From contig JADHTG010000002.1 in assembly GCA_016776505.1 (NCBI GenBank), forward strand, positions 13,852 to 77,851: 64,000 bases of DNA, in the 5' to 3' direction. The stretch comes from Bacteroidota bacterium. GTDB lineage: Bacteria > Bacteroidota > Bacteroidia > CAILMK01 > JAAYUY01. The notes beneath the pieces were generated by a model. That model was given only the letters and a program-made list of their open reading frames with translations, was not told where the DNA came from and did no database searches. Each line of letters opens with the position of its first letter. The stretch's first letter is position 1. A program made the translations under genes and the position numbers. Shown in pieces: positions 2,979 to 18,953 of this stretch.

Positions 2979-4706
2979 ATGACAGAAAGTTTCGTAGTTT
3001 CAGCAAGAAAATACCGTCCCTCTACTTTCAATTCTGTGGTCGGTCAAAGCCATATTACCGATACGTTGAAAAAAGCTGTACTGAGTAATCATTTGGCCCA
3101 GGCCTATTTGTTCACCGGTCCCCGTGGAGTTGGCAAAACGACTTGTGCCAGGATTCTTGCGAAAGCCATTAATTGCGAGAAACTGGAAAAGGACGGTGAA
3201 CCATGTGATGCCTGTAATTCATGTAAAACATTCAGGGAAAACAGATCCATGAATATTTTTGAACTGGATGCTGCATCCAATAATTCAGTTGAAGATATTC
3301 GGGCCCTGGTGGATCAGATCAGGTTTTCACCACAGGCCGGAAAATATAAAACCTACATCATCGATGAGGTTCATATGCTTTCCACACAGGCCTTTAATGC
3401 CTTTCTTAAAACATTGGAAGAACCCCCTCCATATGCTATTTTTATACTGGCTACTACTGAAAAGCATAAAATCATTCCTACCATACTCTCACGATGCCAG
3501 ATCAATGATTTCAATCGCATCCAGGTGAAAGATATTGTCAGCTACCTGCAATATATTTCTGAACAGGAAAATATCAGATCGGAAGAAACTGCGCTTCACA
3601 TCATTGCTCAAAAAGCAGATGGGGCCTTGCGTGATGCATTGACTATTTTTGACCGTATTGTAGGTTTTACACAGGATGAAGTAACTTATGATTTTGTAGT
3701 CAAAAACCTGAATATCATAGATTATGACTACTTCTTTAAAGCCATTGAATTGATCCATGACAGGAATATTGCAGAAATACTGCTAGTATTTGATGAATTA
3801 CTGAATAAAGGTTTTGACGGTCAACATTTTTTAATGGGATTAAGCGAACATATCAGGAATCTATTAATCAGCAAATTACCAAAAACAGATATTTTACTGG
3901 ATGTACCTGAAACAGTAAAAAACAGATTCGCAGAAACTGCTAAGGACCTGAACAAATCTTTCATCCTTTCAGCATTAAACATTCTTAATCAGTTCAATAT
4001 AAGTTATAAAGAAAGTAAAAATCAGCGCCTGCATACGGAACTGGCACTGATCAAGCTTTGTCATATACAGGATGCCATTGACCTGGCTCAGACCTTTAAC
4101 GATCAAAAAAAAAAAGCTGAAGTAGACAAAAAGGAAACGACAAAACCCGGGCTTTCTAAGGACATTGAACACAAGGAAAAAAAAGCGATTGATGAATCCC
4201 CCAAGAAAAAAAATAACTTCAGTAAGTTTAGAGATTTACAATCTGTCAAGCAACAAGTTAAAGAGGAGGAATCACAAGAAAAAAAAGTACTAACAGAAAC
4301 TAGCCAGGAAACTGCAGAAAAAAATAAAAAGAACACAATAGATCAGCGTCGATTTATTGAATTGCTCAATAAATATCTTGAAGATGAGATAAAGGACAAA
4401 ATGATCAGCTTGTATAACAGCATGATAGAAAATAAACCAAAATTCCCTGATGAATTTTCTGTTTTATTCGAATTTGAAAACGCCTCACTGGAAGAACGAT
4501 TCAATAAAGGCATGGGAAAGTTTACTGATTTTATGAATAAGCATGAGATAGAGAATTTCCAAATTCAAACCACGACTCGTGAAATCAGCAGGGAAGAACA
4601 AAGTAAATACCTGGTCAGTCCTGCTGAAAAATTAAAACATTTGAGGGGAAAAAATCCGGAACTGGAGCAGCTGGAGAAGAAGTTGGGATTGTCTGCTGAA
4701 GAATAA
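2979..4706 (+). CDS. dnaX: DNA polymerase III subunit gamma/tau
   Basis: 575 aa; Walker A GPRGVGKTT, clamp-loader box motifs, and a lysine/glutamate-rich C-terminal tau extension. Contains an internal A11 tract (see findings). Confidence 0.93.
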   Translation: MTESFVVSARKYRPSTFNSVVGQSHITDTLKKAVLSNHLAQAYLFTGPRGVGKTTCARILAKAINCEKLEKDGEPCDACNSCKTFRENRSMNIFELDAASNNSVEDIRALVDQIRFSPQAGKYKTYIIDEVHMLSTQAFNAFLKTLEEPPPYAIFILATTEKHKIIPTILSRCQINDFNRIQVKDIVSYLQYISEQENIRSEETALHIIAQKADGALRDALTIFDRIVGFTQDEVTYDFVVKNLNIIDYDYFFKAIELIHDRNIAEILLVFDELLNKGFDGQHFLMGLSEHIRNLLISKLPKTDILLDVPETVKNRFAETAKDLNKSFILSALNILNQFNISYKESKNQRLHTELALIKLCHIQDAIDLAQTFNDQKKKAEVDKKETTKPGLSKDIEHKEKKAIDESPKKKNNFSKFRDLQSVKQQVKEEESQEKKVLTETSQETAEKNKKNTIDQRRFIELLNKYLEDEIKDKMISLYNSMIENKPKFPDEFSVLFEFENASLEERFNKGMGKFTDFMNKHEIENFQIQTTTREISREEQSKYLVSPAEKLKHLRGKNPELEQLEKKLGLSAEE

Positions 4707-4842
4707 TTTATCACCCTAAAATCGACTCTTAGAATTTCATTTTTTTAAGTTTTAAATTGAAATTAATTATCATAATTTAATTCTATATTTGCAGCTATTG
4801 ACAAAACCTTAATATATAATTATATAAAACATATACAACAAA

Positions 4843-6210
4843 ATGAGCGGACAAAAAATTAGAATGCAAAATGGAAAATTAAATGTTCCAGATCAACCCA
4901 TTATTCCATTTATAATTGGCGATGGCACAGGACCGGATATTTGGAAAGCTTCAAAGAAAGTTTTTGATGCCGCAGTCCAAAAAGCTTACAATGGGAAACG
5001 ACAAATTGAATGGCATGAAGTTCTGGCCGGTGAGAACTCTTTCAACAAAAGCGGTGAATGGCTTCCAAAAGAAACGCTGGATGCATTTAAAGAATACTTA
5101 GTTGGAATTAAAGGTCCATTAACAACTCCAATAGGCGGAGGTATTCGCTCCTTAAATGTTGCATTAAGACAGGAACTTGATCTATATACCTGTCTCAGAC
5201 CGGTAAAATATGTTGCTGGTGTTCCATCGCCTGTTAAAAGACCTGAAGATGTGGATATGGTGATATTCAGGGAAAACACAGAAGATATTTATGCCGGTAT
5301 TGAATGGAAGGAAGGATCGGATGAAGTGAAAAAAGTCATTGCTTTTCTTGAAAATGAAATGGGTATTAAAAAAATCAGGTTTCCTAAAACTTCTGGAATT
5401 GGAATCAAGCCGATTTCCAAAGAAGGAACGACACGACTGGTTAGGGCAGCAATAAAATATGCTTTGGAAGAAAAAAGGAAATCAGTTGTCCTGGTTCATA
5501 AAGGCAATATCATGAAATTCACTGAAGGAGCTTTCAAAAGTTGGGGATATGAGCTGGCGAAAGAAGAATTCAGAAATGAAATTATTACAGAAAGAGAAAG
5601 CTGGATTATTGGGAACAAAGATTCAAATCCTGCCCTGACATCAGAAGATAACGCCAAAATGATAGACCCGGGTTATGTGATGATGACGCCCAAACAACAA
5701 AATGAGATTTGTGAAGAAGTTGAATTAGCCTTATCATTGATGCCAACACATGGGAGCGGACAATGGAAAAACAAACTTTTAATCCGCGATACCATTGCTG
5801 ATATTACCCTGCAGCAAGTCCTTTCCAGGGCTAAAGAATTTGATGTAATTGCTACCATGAACCTGAATGGGGATTATTTGTCTGATGCACTAGCTGCCCA
5901 GGTGGGTGGAATCGGGATCGCTCCCGGTGCAAATATCAATTACGAAACCGGACATGCTATTTTCGAAGCTACACACGGAACAGCTCCGAAATATGCCAAT
6001 CTCGATAAAGTCAACCCGGGAAGTGTGATCATCTCAGGTGGCATGATGTTCAAATTTTTAGGTTGGAATGAAGTCAATGAACTGATTTGGAATGGACTGG
6101 TTAAAACAATAGGTCAGAAAAAAGTGACTTATGATTTTCACCGCTTAATGGAAGGAGCTACATTGCTCAAATGTTCTGAATTTGCAGATGCCATAATCGA
6201 GAATATGTAA
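4843..6210 (+). CDS. icd: NADP-dependent isocitrate dehydrogenase
   Basis: 455 aa; near-collinear with E. coli Icd ([71 protein letters not shown]). Confidence 0.95.
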
Positions 6211-6235
6211 GAGTTGGAAATGATAAAGATTAGCC

Positions 6236-6266
6236 CTGATCATGCATTTGGTTGGGGCTTTTTTTT
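6236..6266 (+). terminator. putative rho-independent terminator after icd
   Basis: AGCCC...GGGCT stem followed by T9. Confidence 0.45.
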
Positions 6267-6707
6267 TGGGAGCAAGGTGGTGCCCTGGGCATCCCTTCGG
6301 GAAAGGTTTAAAGATTGAAGGTTGAAAAGTTGAAGGTTAGGATGCTGGCTGATGACTGCCGACTGCAAATGGCAAACCAGGGTTTCTTCTTACTGAGTAA
6401 GCAGAAGAGGTTTCGGTATATGAAAGTCTGGAGACTTTCCTTTATAAAAACTTCCAAGTCGTCCTGTGGAAGACTTGGAAGAACAAGGGTAATTCTATTA
6501 TTAGTTATTCAATTTTTCCATTATTCGAAATAGGTTGTGGGATGTTGGATTTGGATTTTGAGTTGTGGATCTTGGGTTTTGTTATGTCCATGCCTAAATA
6601 AGGTTGACCAAATTTTTAATATAATTATTAATTCTTGGACCAGGAAGCTTTTTGGCACGATATTAGACAAGCCACTTGCTTTGAATACAATTTAATTAAA
6701 TATAGTT

Positions 6708-12431: not shown

Positions 12432-15400
12432 ATGCATGTCAAAATCATGAAATCAACTGCATTTTTATTTTGTTGTTTTTTATCGGTTTTGTTTACATCC
12501 AATGCACAAAATTTCAATGAAATTGTAAAAGCCGTTGCAACAGACAGAGCTGCTAATGATCAATATGGAGTTTCCGTTTCCGTATCCGGGGATTATGCTA
12601 TTGTTGGGGCTTTTGGGGAAGATGAAGATTCTTCCGGATCAAATACAGAAACTGCTGCAGGATCAGCCTATATCTTAAAATACAGTGCCGGAACCTGGTC
12701 CCAACATCAAAAAATTGTGGCATCTGACAGGAAATCAAATGATTATTTTGGATTTGCAGTTGCCATATCCGGAGATTATGCAATTATCGGCGCCTATGCA
12801 GATGATGAGGACTCTTCAGGAGCTAATTATATACCAAGTTCTGGTTCTGCTTATATTTTTAAAAACTGTTCCGGTACCTGGTATCAGGTTCAAAAAATTG
12901 TCGCAACCGACAGAGGATTATTGGATTATTTTGGACGTTCAGTTGCCATAAACGGAGATTATGCAATTGTCGGCTGTGAGTATGAAGATGAAGATGAAGC
13001 AGGTGCAGATACCAAAACTTCTTCAGGCTCAGCCTATGTTTATAAAAATTGTTCTGGTACATGGTATCAAGTTGAAAAAGTAGTAGCATCCGACAGGGCA
13101 GTTGAAGATTATTTTGGTAAATCAGTTGCCATATACGGAGATTATGCCATTGTTGGAGCCTGGGAGGAAGATGAGGATGTGTCCGGAAGTAATACCATGG
13201 ATGGTTCAGGTTCTGCCTATATTTTTAAAAACAATTCAGGTACCTGGTCCCAGCTGCAAAAAATTGTTGCATCCGACAGGGCAGTTGAAGATTTTTTTGG
13301 CAATTCTGTTGCTATTTCAGGAGATTATGCCCTGATTGGTGCCTATGGGGAGGATCATGATGGGTCTGGAAATAACAGCTTAGATGAATCTGGTTCAGTC
13401 TATATTTTTAAAAACAATTCAGGTACCTGGTCCCAGCTGCAAAAAATTGTTGCAACCGACAGGGATTCATTTGATTATTTTGGATTTTCGCTTGCTATTT
13501 CCGGTAATTATGCCGTTGTAGGAGCTTATTATGAAGATTATGTATATGGATCAGATACATCCTTTGAATCCGGTTCCGCCTATATTTTCAAACTCATTTC
13601 AGGAAGCTGGAAACAAGTACAAAAATTTCTTACTTATGACAGAGAAAGCGATGATAATTTCAGTTATTCCCTGAGTATGGACGGGAATTATATTCTTGCC
13701 GGGGCTCGTTATGAAGATGAAGATGCATCCGGAGCAAACACACTATCTGATGCTGGTTCTGCTTATGTTTTTTATAATTGTCACAATGATGCTCTTAGTT
13801 TTAACGGGAGCACTAATTATGTAGATATCGGGATCGGTCCAACATCTGTAAAAACAATAGAAGCATGGGTTAACATGGCTACCAACACGGAGTATATAAT
13901 CGATTTGAATGGTTCATCTTATATCTATGCCAGTTCCGGAACTGTAACTACTTCAGGAATCACCAGTCCGACCATTTATGTAAATGGAGTTCAAACAAGT
14001 TCAATTGCTTCCGGCACCTATCAACACATTGCAGTTACCACTTCAACGGCTGTGAATGCGAGCAATTTTGATGTGGGCAGAGTAGGTTCAAATTATTATT
14101 CAGGCAAAATAGACGAAGTGAGATTATGGGATGATGTAAGGTCACAATCTGAGATCAATGAATATTTGTATAATGAATTATTGGGAAATGAATCCAATTT
14201 GCTTGCATATTATAAAATGTCGAATGGAAGCGGAAGCAGTTTAGCTGATGATCAGACTTCAGGTTCTTATGATGGCAGCTTGATAAACAGTCCGGGTTGG
14301 GTCACCTCAGGTTGTTTTTCAGATGGACGAAACTGTCTTTACTTTGATGGAAGCAATGATTATGTCAATATTCCATCGGTCAGCTGGTCAGCAATTGGAA
14401 CGAATGACTTTTCCATTGAAGCCTGGATCTATCCGGTAGTCCTAACAGGTAGTGTCAGGTTGGTACTTTGTGATAATACCGAGGATAATTTTCAATTTAA
14501 TTTATCATCCGGTGGTTCCACATTACAAATGTTCATCAATACGACTGCCACATCCTCAAACAGCCTTTCATGGAATCTGAATCAATGGTATCATATTGCT
14601 GTAACCAGAAATAGCGGAACCATCTCTTTCTACAGGGATGGCATATACATAGGGGGAGGATCAAATACGGGAAGTATCGCTTCTTCCTCATCCCTGAATA
14701 TGGGCTACAGAAATTATGAGAGTGATTATCCCTTCAATGGGATGATAGATGAAGTCCGTATATGGAGCATATCACGAACTGCAGAAGAAATCCGTGAAAA
14801 TATGGGAAAAACATTATGCGGAAGAGAAAAAGGCTTGCTTGCCTATTACCGTTTTGATTATGGAACTCCCGGAGGATCAAATTCAGCTTTGTCGACATTA
14901 TATGACATTACATCAAATGATAATAATGGCAGCTTAACCAACTTTGCCTTAAGTGGCAGTTCATCCAACTGGGTGAGCTCAACTGCCTTTAATACATGGC
15001 TTGGGAGCGAAGGAACTAACTGGGCTTCAGACAATAACTGGAGTTCAGGATCTGAACCGGTTTCAACAGACCATGTATTTATAAGTGCTTCTTCTGCCAA
15101 TTATCCAGTACTAAGCTCTTCTTCAAGTATTAAGGACCTGATTGTGTCAACCGGATCTCAACTAACTATTAATGCGGGAGGTAGTCTGACCGTCTCTGAC
15201 AACATAATCAATAACAGCGGTACTAACGGGGTGATAATAAATTCCACTGCCTCCGGAAGCGGATCGATCATAAGCAGCAGCAGTATACCTGCCAATGTGA
15301 AGAGATATGTAGCAGTAGGGACAAGTGCAAAAAATCACTTCTTCTCCTCTCCCATTTCCGATGGAACAATCGCTTCTATTTTCGGAAGTGCCAGTTATGG

Positions 15401-16595
15401 CAGCTACAATACCTATGAATTCAATATTTCGTCACAATTATTTGTCAGGAATTTTCCATCTGCCAACATGACCCCCGGACTGGGATATGTGACTGCATAT
15501 GCACACACTTCCTCCACACCCTTAACGAATAGTTTTGCTGGTAGCTTGAATTCCGGGACCGTATCTCCTACTATTTCTGGTACTGATCAGTATTGGAATC
15601 TGATAGGTAATCCCTATCCCTGTGCTGTTGACCTGACAGATGCAACCAATGGCTTTCTCAAAAGTGCAAATAATAACAATATCACAGGAACAGCCTATTT
15701 CTGGATAGACGATGGCACTGAAGGAAGTGGATATACAACGGCTGATTATGCAACTATAAACAGTGCAGGATCCACAGGTTCAGCTAATGGTGAAACCCCT
15801 TCACAATATGTCGGAACAGGCCAGGGCTTTTTTGTACAAAGCAATGGAAACGGTTCAAGCGTCAGTTTCACTGCAGCCATGAAAGTTGCCGGAAACAATA
15901 GCCAGTTTTTTGTACCGGATCCTGTGACTTTCCAAAGAATAAGACTCAGTGTTACAGACAGCAATAACAATTACAACGAAATACTCCTGGCCTTTATTGA
16001 GGATGCTTCCTGGGGTTTTGATCATGATTATGATGGCAGAAAATTAAAAGGAAATCCTGAATTATCCTTTTATTCCTTAATGAAAGACGACACCAATGGC
16101 TATGCTATACAGGGATTCCCTTCATTTCAGAAAGGAATGGTGATTCCCGTTGGATTGGATGCTCATGTAGGTGGTGAATATAATCTGAAATTGAAAGAGA
16201 TGGAGAATTTCGGTTACCAGAAAGTATACCTGAAAGACAAGTTTTTTAATAAAATAACAGATTTAACGGATAGCAGGGAATACACCTTTATAAGTCCAAA
16301 AGGGACTTTTAAAAACAGGTTTGAAATTTTATTCAGCCTGACCAATCACATAGCAGGAGCAGATAATAATGAAATTTCAGTTTTTTCAGTTGGAAACAGC
16401 ATTTTCATCTGCAATCAGGATAAATCTGAGCTGGATGTACAGGTATTTGATATGCTGGGTAAACTACACTTTGAAAGAAACATATCTGACAGTGGATTTC
16501 ATTCCTTTGAGATCGGAGGAAAAACCGGATATTATGTTATAAAAGTGAAGAGTGGAAATGAAATCTTTTCACGCAAGCTTTTGATTCAGAAATAG
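12432..16595 (+). CDS. large secreted T9SS cargo protein: 7-blade FG-GAP-like beta-propeller, two LamG/ConA-like lectin domains, a beta-helix-like region and a C-terminal Por-secretion sorting domain
   Basis: Signal peptide; seven blades of the form DYFGxSVAISGDYAIVGA...SGSAYIFKNxSGTWxQxQKIVASDR; LamG motifs LYFDGSNDYVNIP and DEVRLWDD/DEVRIWS; C-terminal sorting-domain tail YYVIKVKSGNEIFSRKLLIQK. Confidence 0.8.
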   Translation: MHVKIMKSTAFLFCCFLSVLFTSNAQNFNEIVKAVATDRAANDQYGVSVSVSGDYAIVGAFGEDEDSSGSNTETAAGSAYILKYSAGTWSQHQKIVASDRKSNDYFGFAVAISGDYAIIGAYADDEDSSGANYIPSSGSAYIFKNCSGTWYQVQKIVATDRGLLDYFGRSVAINGDYAIVGCEYEDEDEAGADTKTSSGSAYVYKNCSGTWYQVEKVVASDRAVEDYFGKSVAIYGDYAIVGAWEEDEDVSGSNTMDGSGSAYIFKNNSGTWSQLQKIVASDRAVEDFFGNSVAISGDYALIGAYGEDHDGSGNNSLDESGSVYIFKNNSGTWSQLQKIVATDRDSFDYFGFSLAISGNYAVVGAYYEDYVYGSDTSFESGSAYIFKLISGSWKQVQKFLTYDRESDDNFSYSLSMDGNYILAGARYEDEDASGANTLSDAGSAYVFYNCHNDALSFNGSTNYVDIGIGPTSVKTIEAWVNMATNTEYIIDLNGSSYIYASSGTVTTSGITSPTIYVNGVQTSSIASGTYQHIAVTTSTAVNASNFDVGRVGSNYYSGKIDEVRLWDDVRSQSEINEYLYNELLGNESNLLAYYKMSNGSGSSLADDQTSGSYDGSLINSPGWVTSGCFSDGRNCLYFDGSNDYVNIPSVSWSAIGTNDFSIEAWIYPVVLTGSVRLVLCDNTEDNFQFNLSSGGSTLQMFINTTATSSNSLSWNLNQWYHIAVTRNSGTISFYRDGIYIGGGSNTGSIASSSSLNMGYRNYESDYPFNGMIDEVRIWSISRTAEEIRENMGKTLCGREKGLLAYYRFDYGTPGGSNSALSTLYDITSNDNNGSLTNFALSGSSSNWVSSTAFNTWLGSEGTNWASDNNWSSGSEPVSTDHVFISASSANYPVLSSSSSIKDLIVSTGSQLTINAGGSLTVSDNIINNSGTNGVIINSTASGSGSIISSSSIPANVKRYVAVGTSAKNHFFSSPISDGTIASIFGSASYGSYNTYEFNISSQLFVRNFPSANMTPGLGYVTAYAHTSSTPLTNSFAGSLNSGTVSPTISGTDQYWNLIGNPYPCAVDLTDATNGFLKSANNNNITGTAYFWIDDGTEGSGYTTADYATINSAGSTGSANGETPSQYVGTGQGFFVQSNGNGSSVSFTAAMKVAGNNSQFFVPDPVTFQRIRLSVTDSNNNYNEILLAFIEDASWGFDHDYDGRKLKGNPELSFYSLMKDDTNGYAIQGFPSFQKGMVIPVGLDAHVGGEYNLKLKEMENFGYQKVYLKDKFFNKITDLTDSREYTFISPKGTFKNRFEILFSLTNHIAGADNNEISVFSVGNSIFICNQDKSELDVQVFDMLGKLHFERNISDSGFHSFEIGGKTGYYVIKVKSGNEIFSRKLLIQK
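12561..13797 (+). repeat. seven intragenic tandem repeats of about 180 nt (propeller blades) with stretches of about 50 nt identical between copies
   Basis: For example, TTTTTAAAAACAATTCAGGTACCTGGTCCCAGCTGCAAAAAATTGTTGCA occurs identically at about 13221 and about 13401. Confidence 0.85.
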
Positions 16596-16652
16596 GAATT
16601 TGTCATCATCATTAAGACGATTCCAAGCAGAAATCCTGCTTTGCAGGAAGAA

Positions 16653-16747
16653 TTGCTGACCGACCAGGGGTCCCCGCCCGACCGCCTGCTATACGTATCT
16701 CAATCATTTAATTATAAAAAGGTCAGGCGGGCGGGGAACCTGGACTC
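16653..16747 (-). pseudogene. partial duplicate of the tRNA-Gln(CTG) 3' half (variable loop, T-arm and acceptor 3' strand) split in the T-loop by a 63-nt GC-rich palindromic insert
   Basis: Minus strand reads GAGTCCAGGTTC, then CCCGCCCGCCTGACC...GGCGGTCGGGCGGG, then GACCCCTGGTCGGTCAGCAA. The two flanks are identical to tRNA-Gln(CTG) nt 43-73 at 17030-17061. Confidence 0.65.
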
Positions 16748-16986
16748 CTCATGAGCTTTGATTTGATAAATCGTCTTCCTGCTCCGCTTTTAAAATATTT
16801 CTCTCTTGTAATAGCTTTTTCACGGCTTGCATATTCCTCAAAATAATAAATCTCCCAGGGTATAAATGCTTTGGTGGATTTGACTCTGCCTGCATTGTGC
16901 TCAGATAAACGGTTTTTAAGGTTTTCACAATGTCCTTTATAGTAACGATTAAATTTCACGCTATATATTACGTATGCAAAAAACAT
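16723..16986 (-). CDS. GIY-YIG nuclease family protein (87 aa, free-standing)
   Basis: MFFAYVIYSVKFNRYYKGHCENLKNRLSEHNAGRV...PWEIYYFEEYASREKAITREKYFKSGAGRRFIK matches the GIY-YIG catalytic domain. The start was chosen at the M just downstream of the tRNA terminator hairpin. The last 8 codons and the TGA stop lie inside the duplicated tRNA fragment. Confidence 0.8.
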   Translation of the reverse strand: MFFAYVIYSVKFNRYYKGHCENLKNRLSEHNAGRVKSTKAFIPWEIYYFEEYASREKAITREKYFKSGAGRRFIKSKLMRSPGSPPA

Positions 16987-17029
16987 TATTAAAAAACCAA
17001 TCAGAAATTGTAGATTGGGTGAGGATTTG

Positions 17030-17102
17030 CTGACCGACCAGGGGTCGAACCTGGACTCTTCTGATCCAGAATCAGATGTGTTGCCTGTTACACCATCGGT
17101 CA
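17030..17102 (-). tRNA. tRNA-Gln (anticodon CTG)
   Basis: Manual cloverleaf: acceptor TGACCGA/TCGGTCA, D-arm GTGT-AACAGGCA-ACAC, anticodon arm TCTGA-TTCTGGA-TCAGA (anticodon CUG), T-arm CCAGG-TTCGACC-CCTGG, discriminator G; 73 nt, CCA not encoded. Confidence 0.85.
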
Positions 17103-17121
17103 ATAAAGAACAAAAAATTAG

Positions 17122-17193
17122 CTGACCCACAAGGACTTGAACCTTGAATTCCAGAACCAAAATCTGGCGTGTTGCCAATTACACCATGGGTCA
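17122..17193 (-). tRNA. tRNA-Gln (anticodon TTG)
   Basis: Acceptor TGACCCA/TGGGTCA, anticodon arm CCAGA-TTTTGGT-TCTGG (anticodon UUG), T-arm CAAGG-TTCAAGT-CCTTG, 72 nt. A Bacteroidetes-type -33 TTG / -7 TAATTTTG promoter lies just upstream, at 17200-17245 on the minus strand. Confidence 0.85.
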
Positions 17194-17387
17194 TTAAAAG
17201 CGAGTGCAAAATTAGCAAGATTCAATAAGTTACCCAAACAATTTTTTCGATGGATTTTTATTCAAAATCTCCTGTCCGTTTTCAAAGAGCAGATCTAAAA
17301 ACACCTTGTTCCCCCTTCTTTATTTATAGAGAAGGCTGGCTTGAGTTGTTTTAGAAAGCTTTTTAGAGATGCTCTAAAAATCTCTTT

Positions 17388-18953
17388 TTATTTTGCAAAT
17401 GCAACCGATCTTTTCTCCCGGATCACAGTGATCTTAATCTGTCCCGGATAAGTCATTGTTTCCTGGATCTTTTGTGATATATCTTCAGACAGGGTATCAG
17501 AATCTGTATCTGAAACACGCTCACTTTGCACCATCACCCGCAGCTCCCGTCCGGCCTGGATGGCATATGCCTTAATAACACCTTCGTGCGACATAGCCAC
17601 ATTTTCCAGGTCTTTGAGTCTCTTGATATAAGATTCAAAGATCTCTCTTCTGGCACCTGGCCGTGCACCTGAAAGGGCATCACACACCTGTACTATCGGT
17701 GCAAGTAAGGTGGTCATCTCCAGCTCATCATGATGGGATCCAATTGCATTCACAACGGAAGGATGCTCCTTAAATCGCTCGGCAATGCGGGAACCTAAAA
17801 CAGCATGCGGAATTTCAGGATCTTCATCCGACACTTTGCCTATATCATGCAGCAAACCGGCCCTTTTAGCCTGTTTCGCATTTAATCCCAGCTCGCCAGC
17901 CATGATAGCACACAGATTGGCCACTTCCCTGCTGTGCTGCAAGAGGTTTTGTCCGTAAGACGACCTGTATTTCATCCGACCTACTAATTTGATCAATTCA
18001 GGATGTAGTCTCTGAATCCCCAGATCCATACAGGTTTTTTCACCCACTTCTACCAATTCATCATCAATTTGCTTGGTCGTTTTTGTTACCACTTCCTCAA
18101 TGCGGGCAGGATGAATGCGTCCATCCGTTACCAGTTTATGCAAGGATAACCTGGCTATCTCCCTGCGAACGGGATCAAATCCTGAAAGGACAATGGAATC
18201 GGGGGTGTCATCCACAATTATTTCCACTCCGGTTGCAGATTCCAATGCCCTGATATTTCGCCCTTCCCGACCTATAATACGACCTTTTATTTCTTCATTC
18301 TCAATCGGGAAAACAGAAACACAGTTTTCCACAGCCTGTTCAACAGCTACACGTTGAATGGAAATTAAAACAATTCTCCTGGCCTCTTTATTAGCCGTGA
18401 GTTTTGCTTCATCGGTAATTTCTTTGATCATCGATTTTGCCTCGTCTCTGGCATCCGCCTTCAGACTTTCAATCAACTGTGATTTTGCCACTTCAGCAGA
18501 CATTCCTGCCACTTTTTCCAGCTGATCTACCTGCATTTGATGCAATTTTTCCAATTCCTCTTTTTTCCTGATATTGATAGCCAGTTGACGGTCAAGATCT
18601 TCTTTTAATTGCATGATCTCATTTTCCTTACGCAGGTTGTCTTCCGCTTTTCTTCTTAAATTGAGCTCCTTGTCTTTTAATTTATTGATGTTTGAATTTA
18701 ATACTTTGTTTTTGTTTTGGATTTCGCGTTCGTGATGGGATTTCATCTGCAGGTACTTTTCTTTTGCTTCCAGCAATTTATCCCTGCGAATGATTTCTGC
18801 CTTTTCCTCTGCTTCTTTAAGAATATTCTTAGTTTTATTGTTCAGATCAGATTCCTGTTGTTTAAGCTTACCGGCCAATAGTTTTCGTCCTAGAAAAATT
18901 CCGCCAGGCAATGCAACACCAAATCCGATTAATAATGGAATGATAGCGCCCAT
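17388..18953 (-). CDS. rny: ribonuclease Y
   Basis: 521 aa; N-terminal TM helix, coiled-coil, KH domain ([15 protein letters not shown]) and HD domain (LLHDIGK). Confidence 0.93.

Follow-up and report, generated by a model that had tools for sequence, protein, structure and literature searches.

A candidate SegB-like homing cassette at a tRNA-Gln gene of a Bacteroidota genome, with a dispersed GC-rich palindrome nested in its spare tRNA copy

SegB is a GIY-YIG homing endonuclease encoded in a phage tRNA gene cluster, whose 27-bp site has an essential core, GGTTCRANTCC, that is a T-loop motif (PMC2330249). By recombination of the tRNA 5' region with the 3' region of segB, it amplifies tRNA-segB units in tandem (PMC13096335), and the SegB papers describe a C-terminal DNA-binding part with a NUMOD3 motif. 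Here we analyse positions 16653-16747 of a 64,000-nt stretch of a Bacteroidota genome (hereafter the window), where the open reading frame (ORF) of a small GIY-YIG nuclease runs into a partial copy of a tRNA-Gln gene that is itself split by a GC-rich palindrome. From the comparisons reported below, this region is probably the distal end of a selfish, SegB-like homing-endonuclease cassette lodged in a tRNA-gene duplication, with a nested palindrome resembling repetitive extragenic palindromic (REP) sequences and Rickettsia palindromic elements (RPE). As in phages T4/T6, a GIY-YIG gene lies between tRNA genes, the recognition core of SegB is the exact motif that the palindrome splits here, the 3' ends of ORFs extend into the 5' ends of tRNAs, and the units form arrays. 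The two systems differ in that SegB is phage-borne, whereas the present family of ~80-aa proteins is encoded on Bacteroidota chromosomes and hardly ever on viral contigs; furthermore, no palindromes have been described for SegB, and the sequence relationship holds at the superfamily level only.

Each component of the locus resembles a known kind, i.e. free-standing homing endonucleases, mitochondrial endonuclease ORFs that duplicate a gene's 3' end, and REP/RPE palindromes; a full-text literature search found no description of the arrangement or of the palindrome family. The mobile endonuclease ORFs of mitochondria, such as the Allomyces atp6 ORF and the 'mORFs' of Glomeromycota, carry a replacement 3' end of the gene that they invade. 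They are inserted in the 3' part of a conserved gene, which stays functional, and the displaced duplicate of its 3' end lies downstream, as here. Their hosts are protein-coding mitochondrial genes, whereas the host is here a bacterial tRNA gene, the duplicate can be a whole gene and the intact copy can lie on either side. REP sequences and the bacterial interspersed mosaic elements (BIME), RPE and the GC clusters of yeast mitochondria are short, imperfect, dispersed palindromes, sometimes in tandem and in either orientation. The palindromes studied here are likewise GC-rich in an AT-rich genome and, like RPE, inserted in-frame in housekeeping genes. They differ from REP/RPE by their sequence family (CCCGCCCG...CGGGCGGG) and by their concentration in spare tRNA copies beside the GIY-YIG gene. 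Slx1 and the UPF0213 proteins (YhbQ, COG2827-type) are the best structural matches of the window protein, with weak sequence matches; Slx1 requires Slx4 and has a RING domain, and UPF0213 proteins are not known from any mobile context. Finally, islands that target tRNA genes (attL/attR) also leave the tRNA intact, with a direct repeat of its 3' part at the far end of the insert. They differ from the present locus, where there is no integrase, the insert is ~0.3-0.4 kb, whole-tRNA repeats are possible and tandem arrays are found.

All coordinates are positions within the window, whose G+C content is 37% (an earlier note on this DNA had put the genome at about 35%), and the locus is read on the minus strand. 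Its features are the following:

17121-17193, minus strand: tRNA-Gln(TTG), first gene of the tRNA pair (ARAGORN; Rfam tRNA, 62.5 bits).
17029-17102, minus strand: tRNA-Gln(CTG), intact host gene whose 3' part is duplicated (ARAGORN; Rfam, 61.4 bits).
16991-17018, minus strand: native terminator-like hairpin of the tRNA operon, CCAATC..GATTGG followed by T6, between the tRNA and the ORF start (read from the sequence).
16723-16986, minus strand: GIY-YIG nuclease ORF, 87 aa plus TGA (ATG at 16986, TGA at 16725-16723).
16736-16750, minus strand: spare tRNA-Gln(CTG) copy, positions ~42-56 (variable loop, 5' T-stem, TTC), 14/15 identical to 17047-17061.
16673-16735, no strand assigned: GC-rich palindrome of 63 nt, with arms and an AT-rich loop of 34 nt, inserted between tRNA C56 and G57.
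16653-16672, minus strand: spare tRNA copy, positions 57-76 plus 2 nt, 20/20 identical to 17027-17046.
16610-16652, minus strand: diverged second tRNA trailer, up to an ATG, part of repeat D1, with a terminator-like hairpin at 16634-16648.
16610-16983, minus strand: insertion relative to the empty site, 374 nt (start-to-start spacing of the direct repeats 374; empty loci L085 and L086).

The earlier note had described a nuclease ORF that runs into a duplicated tRNA-Gln sequence, and the sequence bears this out for tRNA positions ~42-76. GAGTCCAGGTTC (16747-16736) is identical to tRNA-Gln(CTG) 17058-17047 at 12/12 positions (14/15 with the flanks), and GACCCCTGGTCGGTCAGCAA (16672-16653) corresponds to the 3' end of the tRNA plus 2 nt at 20/20. 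The copy is split exactly where the note had placed the break, between GGTTC and GACCCC, by the 63-nt palindrome, after which it resumes perfectly for 20 nt to the tRNA 3' end; the stop codon indeed falls within the left arm of the palindrome. The arms are CCCGCCCGCCTGACC and GGCGGTCGGGCGGG, and the loop between them measures 34 nt instead of the 33 nt given earlier. The match of the 3' flank to tRNA-Gln is not at chance level, the 19-mer of the tRNA 3' end being present in the window in the intact tRNA and the spare copy and at no other site. The GC stem, called conspicuous in the earlier note, is the sole perfect 8-bp inverted repeat of the window with at least 7/8 G+C and arms within 80 nt. 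CCCGCCCG occurs in the 64 kb as the two arms only, against 0.21 occurrences expected, and the window holds a single copy of the palindrome. A chance origin of the split tRNA copy and its palindrome is excluded. The repetition reaches beyond the tRNA: repeat D1 (16610-16672 versus 16984-17046) is 63 nt long and 73% identical, and it extends beyond the tRNA for ~43 nt, as far as the ORF ATG, its trailer part (16610-16652) having roughly 60% identity as counted by eye. The spacer between tRNA-Gln(CTG) and the ORF start is 42 nt long; a simple terminator scan omits its hairpin (16991-17018) because the loop exceeds the limit of the scan.

The polarity of the event was established from relatives. 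Homologues of RNase Y with 89% and 86% identity led to contigs L085 and L086, in which the locus is present without the ORF. The window and both contigs share the order pheT-x-zapA-rny-tRNA-Gln(TTG)-tRNA-Gln(CTG), tRNA-Gln(TTG) being retained and the intact tRNA-Gln(CTG) being orthologous in the three; in L085 and L086, a terminator lies directly 3' of the tRNA. Because the terminator of L085 aligns with the spacer hairpin 17018-16991, it is the window that gained 374 nt relative to the empty site, namely the ORF, the split T-arm copy and the diverged second trailer with its own terminator-like hairpin (16648-16634). The register of this insertion is arbitrary, since direct repeats flank both sides. 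The same locus is occupied in the window and in L005, a near-identical metagenome-assembled genome (MAG), and empty in L085 and L086; the cassette has therefore been inserted, between direct repeats that comprise the tRNA from position ~42 through the trailer. Among the functions that the earlier note had offered for the fragment (terminator, RNase P or RNase Z signal, recombination crossover point), the last comes closest, since what was inserted is a cassette, of which the fragment forms the distal direct repeat, and the locus is empty in relatives.

A direct repeat of the 3' part of a tRNA, with 12 + 20 identical nt here, is also the classical signature of an island, and the fragment could be read as an attR-type scar of a tyrosine-integrase island at the tRNA 3' end, with the GIY-YIG gene as leftover cargo. 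The occurrence in L086 of a nearby HTH_17 gene behind an unrelated tRNA fragment would agree with this reading. Yet the insertion is only 374 nt long and holds an 87-aa ORF and no integrase, the same minimal unit of ORF and repeat is found in about 80 genomes, where it forms tandem arrays, and the repeats often span the entire tRNA and reach into the ORF. We regard an integrase scar as very improbable, and its exclusion is based on the size, content and recurrence of the insertion.

The protein encoded by the cassette matches Pfam PF01541 over residues 2-67 (46.6 bits versus a cut-off of 22.6, E = 4.3e-12), i.e. the GIY-YIG domain is essentially the entire protein, a minimal catalytic domain of the Slx1/UPF0213 type. 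No separate DNA-binding domain was found in the bare ~80-aa protein, the match at residues 2-67 being its only one in Pfam, and no NCBIfam model matches it. An exact-sequence lookup returned no record; a relative with 99% identity (P0001) led to locus L005. We retrieved 215 homologues, most of them of 78-83 aa, and in an alignment of 26 of these Y5, Y16, G18, R26, H30, N31 and E62 are invariant, with the right residue types in the right order. The invariant Tyr, Arg and Glu columns are candidates for the catalytic Tyr...Tyr...Arg...Glu of the GIY-YIG motif. The AlphaFold2 model (pLDDT 85) has the elements E-E-H-E-H-H, the expected GIY-YIG order. Foldseek placed it closest to UPF0213 (1zg2), Slx1 (7cq2, 6seh, 4xlg) and I-TevI, with query-normalised TM-scores of 0.52-0.66, and a sequence search of the PDB gave weak matches to 1ywl and 1zg2 (UPF0213) and nothing stronger.

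The ORF ends ...AAG CTC ATG AGG AGT CCA GGT TCC CCG CCC GCC TGA, and its last ~9 codons derive from the tRNA and the palindrome. Most homologues terminate ~8 residues before the end of the window protein, and residues 83-87 are modelled as disordered (pLDDT < 50), so the tail is best seen as incidental read-through. A few homologues end in ...SGSPPA or ...SGSPPVRPS, their ORFs crossing the same GGTTC-CCCGCCCG junction. Both the tail of 9 residues and the placement of the stop codon in the palindrome are by-products. A 151-aa ORF initiated at TTG (17178-16723, minus strand) and passing through both tRNA-Gln genes was rejected as spurious, homologues supporting the ATG at 16986; it could mislead gene callers.

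The cassette recurs widely. A scan limited to one genome per species gave 79 further loci beyond the closest relatives, and 82 non-redundant loci were analysed. The scanned loci are nearly all from genomes named as Bacteroidota; three carry other labels, i.e. L055, L066 and L075, typical Bacteroidota tRNA-Arg cassettes in MAGs labelled Bacillota, Vulcanococcus (a cyanobacterium) and Burkholderiales, and these labels probably result from binning contamination. Among the closest relatives, L001-L003 lie beside tRNA-Arg(CCT), L004 is at a contig end and L005 is the near-identical MAG mentioned above; all five show the order intact tRNA, ORF and T-arm copy split after GTTC by the CCCGCCCG...CGGGCGGG palindrome. 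An intact tRNA on the same strand abuts the ORF in 72/82 loci (48 upstream, 23 downstream, 1 on both sides). The adjacent tRNAs are Arg-CCT (37), Arg-CCG (21) and Gln (9), with Arg-TCG, Arg-ACG, Met, Glu and Leu together accounting for 7. Four of the remaining 10 loci have their ORF within ~180 nt of the end of the retrieved stretch, and most of the others that were inspected have decayed or palindrome-bearing tRNA copies. The same architecture, i.e. one intact tRNA, an ORF and spare tRNA copies, recurs in about 80 Bacteroidota genomes.

On the far side of the ORF, the tRNA repeat ranges from ~35 nt to the whole gene plus the first ORF codons, and it includes both 3' and 5' parts. We distinguished two classes. 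In class A, to which the window belongs, the intact tRNA is followed by the ORF and then by the spare copy. In class B (e.g. Pedobacter L036 and L047), the spare copy (positions 1-55) precedes the ORF and the intact tRNA follows it, the ORF beginning at an ATG within the T-stem of the spare copy and stopping at a TAG within the D-stem of the intact one. The distance from a tRNA to the ORF start is 0-20 nt in many loci; more generally, the ORF begins immediately behind or within a tRNA copy, and its end often falls within the following copy. At L036 (1420-1803), the start codon lies within the T-stem sequence AGATATGAGTT of the upstream spare copy, and the stop TAG is that of the D-stem GTAG of the downstream intact tRNA; therefore, cleavage by RNase P would strip the mRNA of its stop codon.

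Tandem arrays are formed, and their copy number varies among relatives. Twelve loci contain at least two ORF copies, their arrays comprising 2-5 units of 300-380 nt; no array was found to have more than one intact tRNA. Thus L047 (800-2400), L035 (1426-2700) and L079 (1449-2431) have 3-5 near-identical ORF units of 300-310 nt with one intact tRNA-Arg at the end or start of the array, and Pedobacter species differ in having 1, 2 or 5 units. Palindrome-bearing 5' fragments of tRNAs without an ORF also occur, in arrays or alone, at L053 (765-1325, five units of 133 nt), L040 (1237-1366) and L001 (99-201); they look like ORF-deleted derivatives of the cassette, comparable to miniature inverted-repeat transposable elements.

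Two simpler accounts of the duplication were rejected. The palindrome-bearing copy is not a sole, intron-like tRNA copy, given that the end of the ORF takes the place of the 5' acceptor strands (L014, L017) and that an intact copy is adjacent in 72/82 loci. Neither is the repeat a simple target-site duplication: the palindrome lies inside it and not at its edge, and its length varies from ~35 nt to a whole tRNA plus part of the ORF.

The cassette may move together with tRNA-derived sequence. The spare copies of L001 and L059 match tRNAs of other sampled loci (L028 and L030) and not the local tRNA, from which they differ by paired T-stem changes; this suggests that the tRNA-derived flanks travel with the element. 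In the ORF tree, the clade of the other Gln-associated ORFs does not include the window protein, and loci at Arg-CCT and at Arg-CCG are intermixed, which indicates switching of the host tRNA. A phage vector was considered, and only two viral contigs were found to carry the family. One of them (L208, 144-529) has a family ORF and, after it, a 45-nt palindrome lying directly against the 5' end of an intact tRNA-Lys, no more than 150 nt from where the contig ends; a prophage boundary called at the tRNA may account for this.

The palindromes were censused over 249 kb of cassette loci, tandem copies being merged. All 96 insertion sites are in tRNA-derived sequence, and none was found in the rest of the 249 kb sampled, i.e. 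in the flanks outside the tRNA-derived copies. We could map 86 of these sites: 44 lie in the D-loop between positions 17 and 18 (between the conserved GG), 8 at 21/22, 25 in the T-loop between positions 56 and 57, 8 in the variable region or 5' T-stem and 1 at position 39. The unmapped sites are in degenerate tRNA copies or at a locus edge and are visibly tRNA-derived. When the palindromes were cut out in silico, ARAGORN recovered full tRNAs. By length they form two groups, a short one of 19-40 nt and a long one of 51-105 nt (many of 60-65 nt), and the window 63-mer belongs to the latter. Single, tandem (2-3 copies) and nested palindromes were all found, as were both orientations. Some changes in the outer stem are double changes that preserve pairing (e.g. 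C-G to T-A, stem positions 3 and 7). The arms of the window palindrome are also those of a 29-nt palindrome in L001, at the same T-loop position beside a tRNA-Arg. An identical 28-mer occupies the D-loop site in nine loci, whose ORFs are ~50-65% identical to the window protein; at such identities, these nine loci are not recent copies of one another. The strict pattern detected no palindrome in 24/82 loci, where ORF and tRNA duplication are nevertheless present. Mismatches to the local tRNA are not asymmetric around the T-loop palindromes (0.13 per nt on the left versus 0.09 on the right), and the argument that the palindrome edge is the junction of element and target was dropped.

The census also bears on a role of the hairpin at the RNA level in the GIY-YIG transcript, as the terminator proposed in the earlier note or as a REP-like 3' stabiliser, with the tRNA fragment as a signal for RNase P or RNase Z. 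The thermodynamic fold suggested in that note was computed for 16640-16770 and is strong (-43.4 kcal/mol, z = -2.5), the T-stem lengthening the hairpin. T-runs follow some dispersed copies of the palindrome, and ORF starts 0-20 nt after a tRNA make tRNA-mRNA co-transcripts likely, two further points in favour of an RNA role. In the window, however, the palindrome is followed by GACCCCTGGTCGG with no T-run, and the terminator scan did not call it; the scan calls the hairpin 16648-16634, 25 nt further on. Nor does the fragment make a convincing mimic of a tRNA: it has no 5' acceptor strand, and there is no ARAGORN or Rfam tRNA match at 16653-16750 (over 16400-17400, Rfam at a permissive threshold gives the two tRNAs only). 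Moreover, palindromes sit at differing tRNA positions, including the D-loop and variable loop, in either orientation, and the same palindromes are found inside coding sequences. A function as terminator, stabiliser or processing signal is accordingly unlikely.

Outside the cassettes, the palindromes were surveyed by a palindrome-anchored metagenome scan, which gave 84 sites in 80 loci. Thirteen of them are in high-GC contigs and are probably chance matches. The 71 low-GC sites comprise 5 within 300 nt of a family ORF and 66 away from the ORF family. Copies located in long ORFs have a length divisible by 3 in 26/29 cases versus 17/34 elsewhere (p = 0.001). GC-rich palindromes of 27-36 nt, belonging to these sequence families, lie in-frame inside long ORFs at L131 (4011-4037) and likewise in L126, L153, L101, L089, L110, L109 and L161. 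From reading the translations, the host ORFs look like SecA, GyrA (two copies), RecG, UvrC, HutU and an IS66-type transposase; the LigA identity of a further one is the sole host identity confirmed by search. The in-frame inserts encode peptides such as PARPDGxxGG and ARPDDxxGRG (e.g. ARPDDPVGRG, PARPDGRSGG). In the LigA of Chitinophagales, the insertion is missing from a 94%-identical homologue and from most homologues of 84-85% identity, and it is present in a diverged form in others. No RAYT (HUH Y1) gene was seen beside the palindromes in the loci that were read; the window was not scanned for RAYT.

The palindrome split into the window's tRNA copy between C56 and G57 is therefore a member of a dispersed, insertion-polymorphic and separately mobile GC-rich family resembling REP and RPE, and a strong concentration of this family in the spare tRNA copies next to the nuclease gene is nonetheless evident. 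The earlier note had considered that the palindrome might be a REP-like repeat unrelated to tRNA fragments; it was right about a dispersed REP-like family, while the association with tRNA fragments proved real (96/96 sites). These palindromes behave like RPE, but in Bacteroidota, being inserted in-frame in genes such as ligA and the presumed secA and gyrA, and their concentration beside a nuclease of structure-specific type gives a testable lead to the mobilising enzyme.

This leads to a different assignment of roles, in which the palindrome is the primary actor, a REP/RPE-like mobile hairpin mobilised by the adjacent Slx1-like GIY-YIG nuclease, i.e. a 'REPtron' without an HUH transposase. The ~80-aa protein may, on this rather doubtful account, mobilise palindromes by cutting hairpin or cloverleaf DNA, the tRNA arrays being the home locus of a two-part system. 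Non-autonomous hairpins would then seed in-frame insertions in housekeeping genes of Bacteroidota, in a partnership like that of REP and RAYT with another nuclease fold. Identical palindromes at unrelated sites, the frame preservation in 26/29 long-ORF copies and the presence or absence of the LigA insertion among 94%-identical relatives are in its favour. So are the tandem, nested and two-way arrangement of the palindromes, their strong enrichment beside the ORFs, the inclusion of Slx1, a nuclease of branched DNA, among the nearest folds, and the identical D-loop 28-mer in nine loci with diverged ORFs. In the hairpin-anchored metagenome sample, however, only 5/71 low-GC sites are within 300 nt of a family ORF, 24/82 loci combine ORF and tRNA duplication with no palindrome detected by the strict pattern, and hairpin transposition driven by a GIY-YIG enzyme has no known biochemical precedent. 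Taken together, these points leave the palindrome-centred scheme somewhat unlikely.

We favour the SegB-like homing cassette, which would work as follows. The nuclease would cut DNA at or near tRNA-gene sequences, and repair by homologous recombination, with the tRNA-derived repeats as arms, would carry a copy of the cassette to tRNA loci that still lack it in related genomes. The arrays would grow or shrink by unequal exchange, as with SegB of T4/T6, and selection would keep one tRNA copy intact because it is needed. In the spare copies, the palindromes split the T-loop motif GGTTC/RANNCC, which is the core of the SegB site, and the GG of the D-loop; by splitting these motifs, they may immunise redundant targets, or they may be parasites tolerated only there. 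Alternatively, the palindromes could be mobilised by the Slx1-like nuclease itself.

Several points weigh against homing. The chief weakness is that the ~80-aa protein has no DNA-binding domain such as the NUMOD3-containing C-terminal part of SegB, so that site-specific homing is an extrapolation. Cleavage by the nuclease and its specificity are predictions, and any T-loop target survives in the intact tRNA, which leaves self-immunity unexplained. The lack of mismatch asymmetry means that the palindrome edge cannot be shown to be an element-target junction, and the expression of the window ORF is uncertain, as a terminator-like hairpin precedes it. On jumping to a new tRNA species, the cassette must preserve tRNA function, and the model gives no account of how this is achieved. 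The near absence of the family from viral contigs, finally, leaves it without an evident route of transfer.

Small 'GIY-YIG nuclease family protein' genes are annotated beside tRNAs across Bacteroidota without comment. The present data place them in a coherent and dynamic element with four parts, i.e. the ORF, the duplicated tRNA, arrays in which a single intact tRNA was found, and palindromes in the spare copies. If the homing reading is true, this element would be a chromosomal bacterial counterpart of phage SegB and, at ~0.3 kb, among the smallest known self-contained selfish cassettes. Homing would also explain tRNA pseudogene fragments as well as errors of annotation, for instance C-termini that are too long and tRNA copies that are overlooked.

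Two further observations concern the neighbourhood of the locus. Downstream of the tRNA-Gln pair, the empty-site contig L086 has a separate tRNA 3' fragment (4420-4530, ..GGTTCGAATCCAGTATGTCCCACA) followed by an HTH_17 gene (genes at 4806-6566); this looks like the edge of an unrelated integrative element. In the window, a gene on the plus strand (12432-16595) converges on the cassette, its stop codon lying 14 nt from the end of the duplicated trailer; it encodes a repeat-rich protein of 1387 aa whose C-terminus, as we presume from its appearance, may be a type IX secretion sorting domain.

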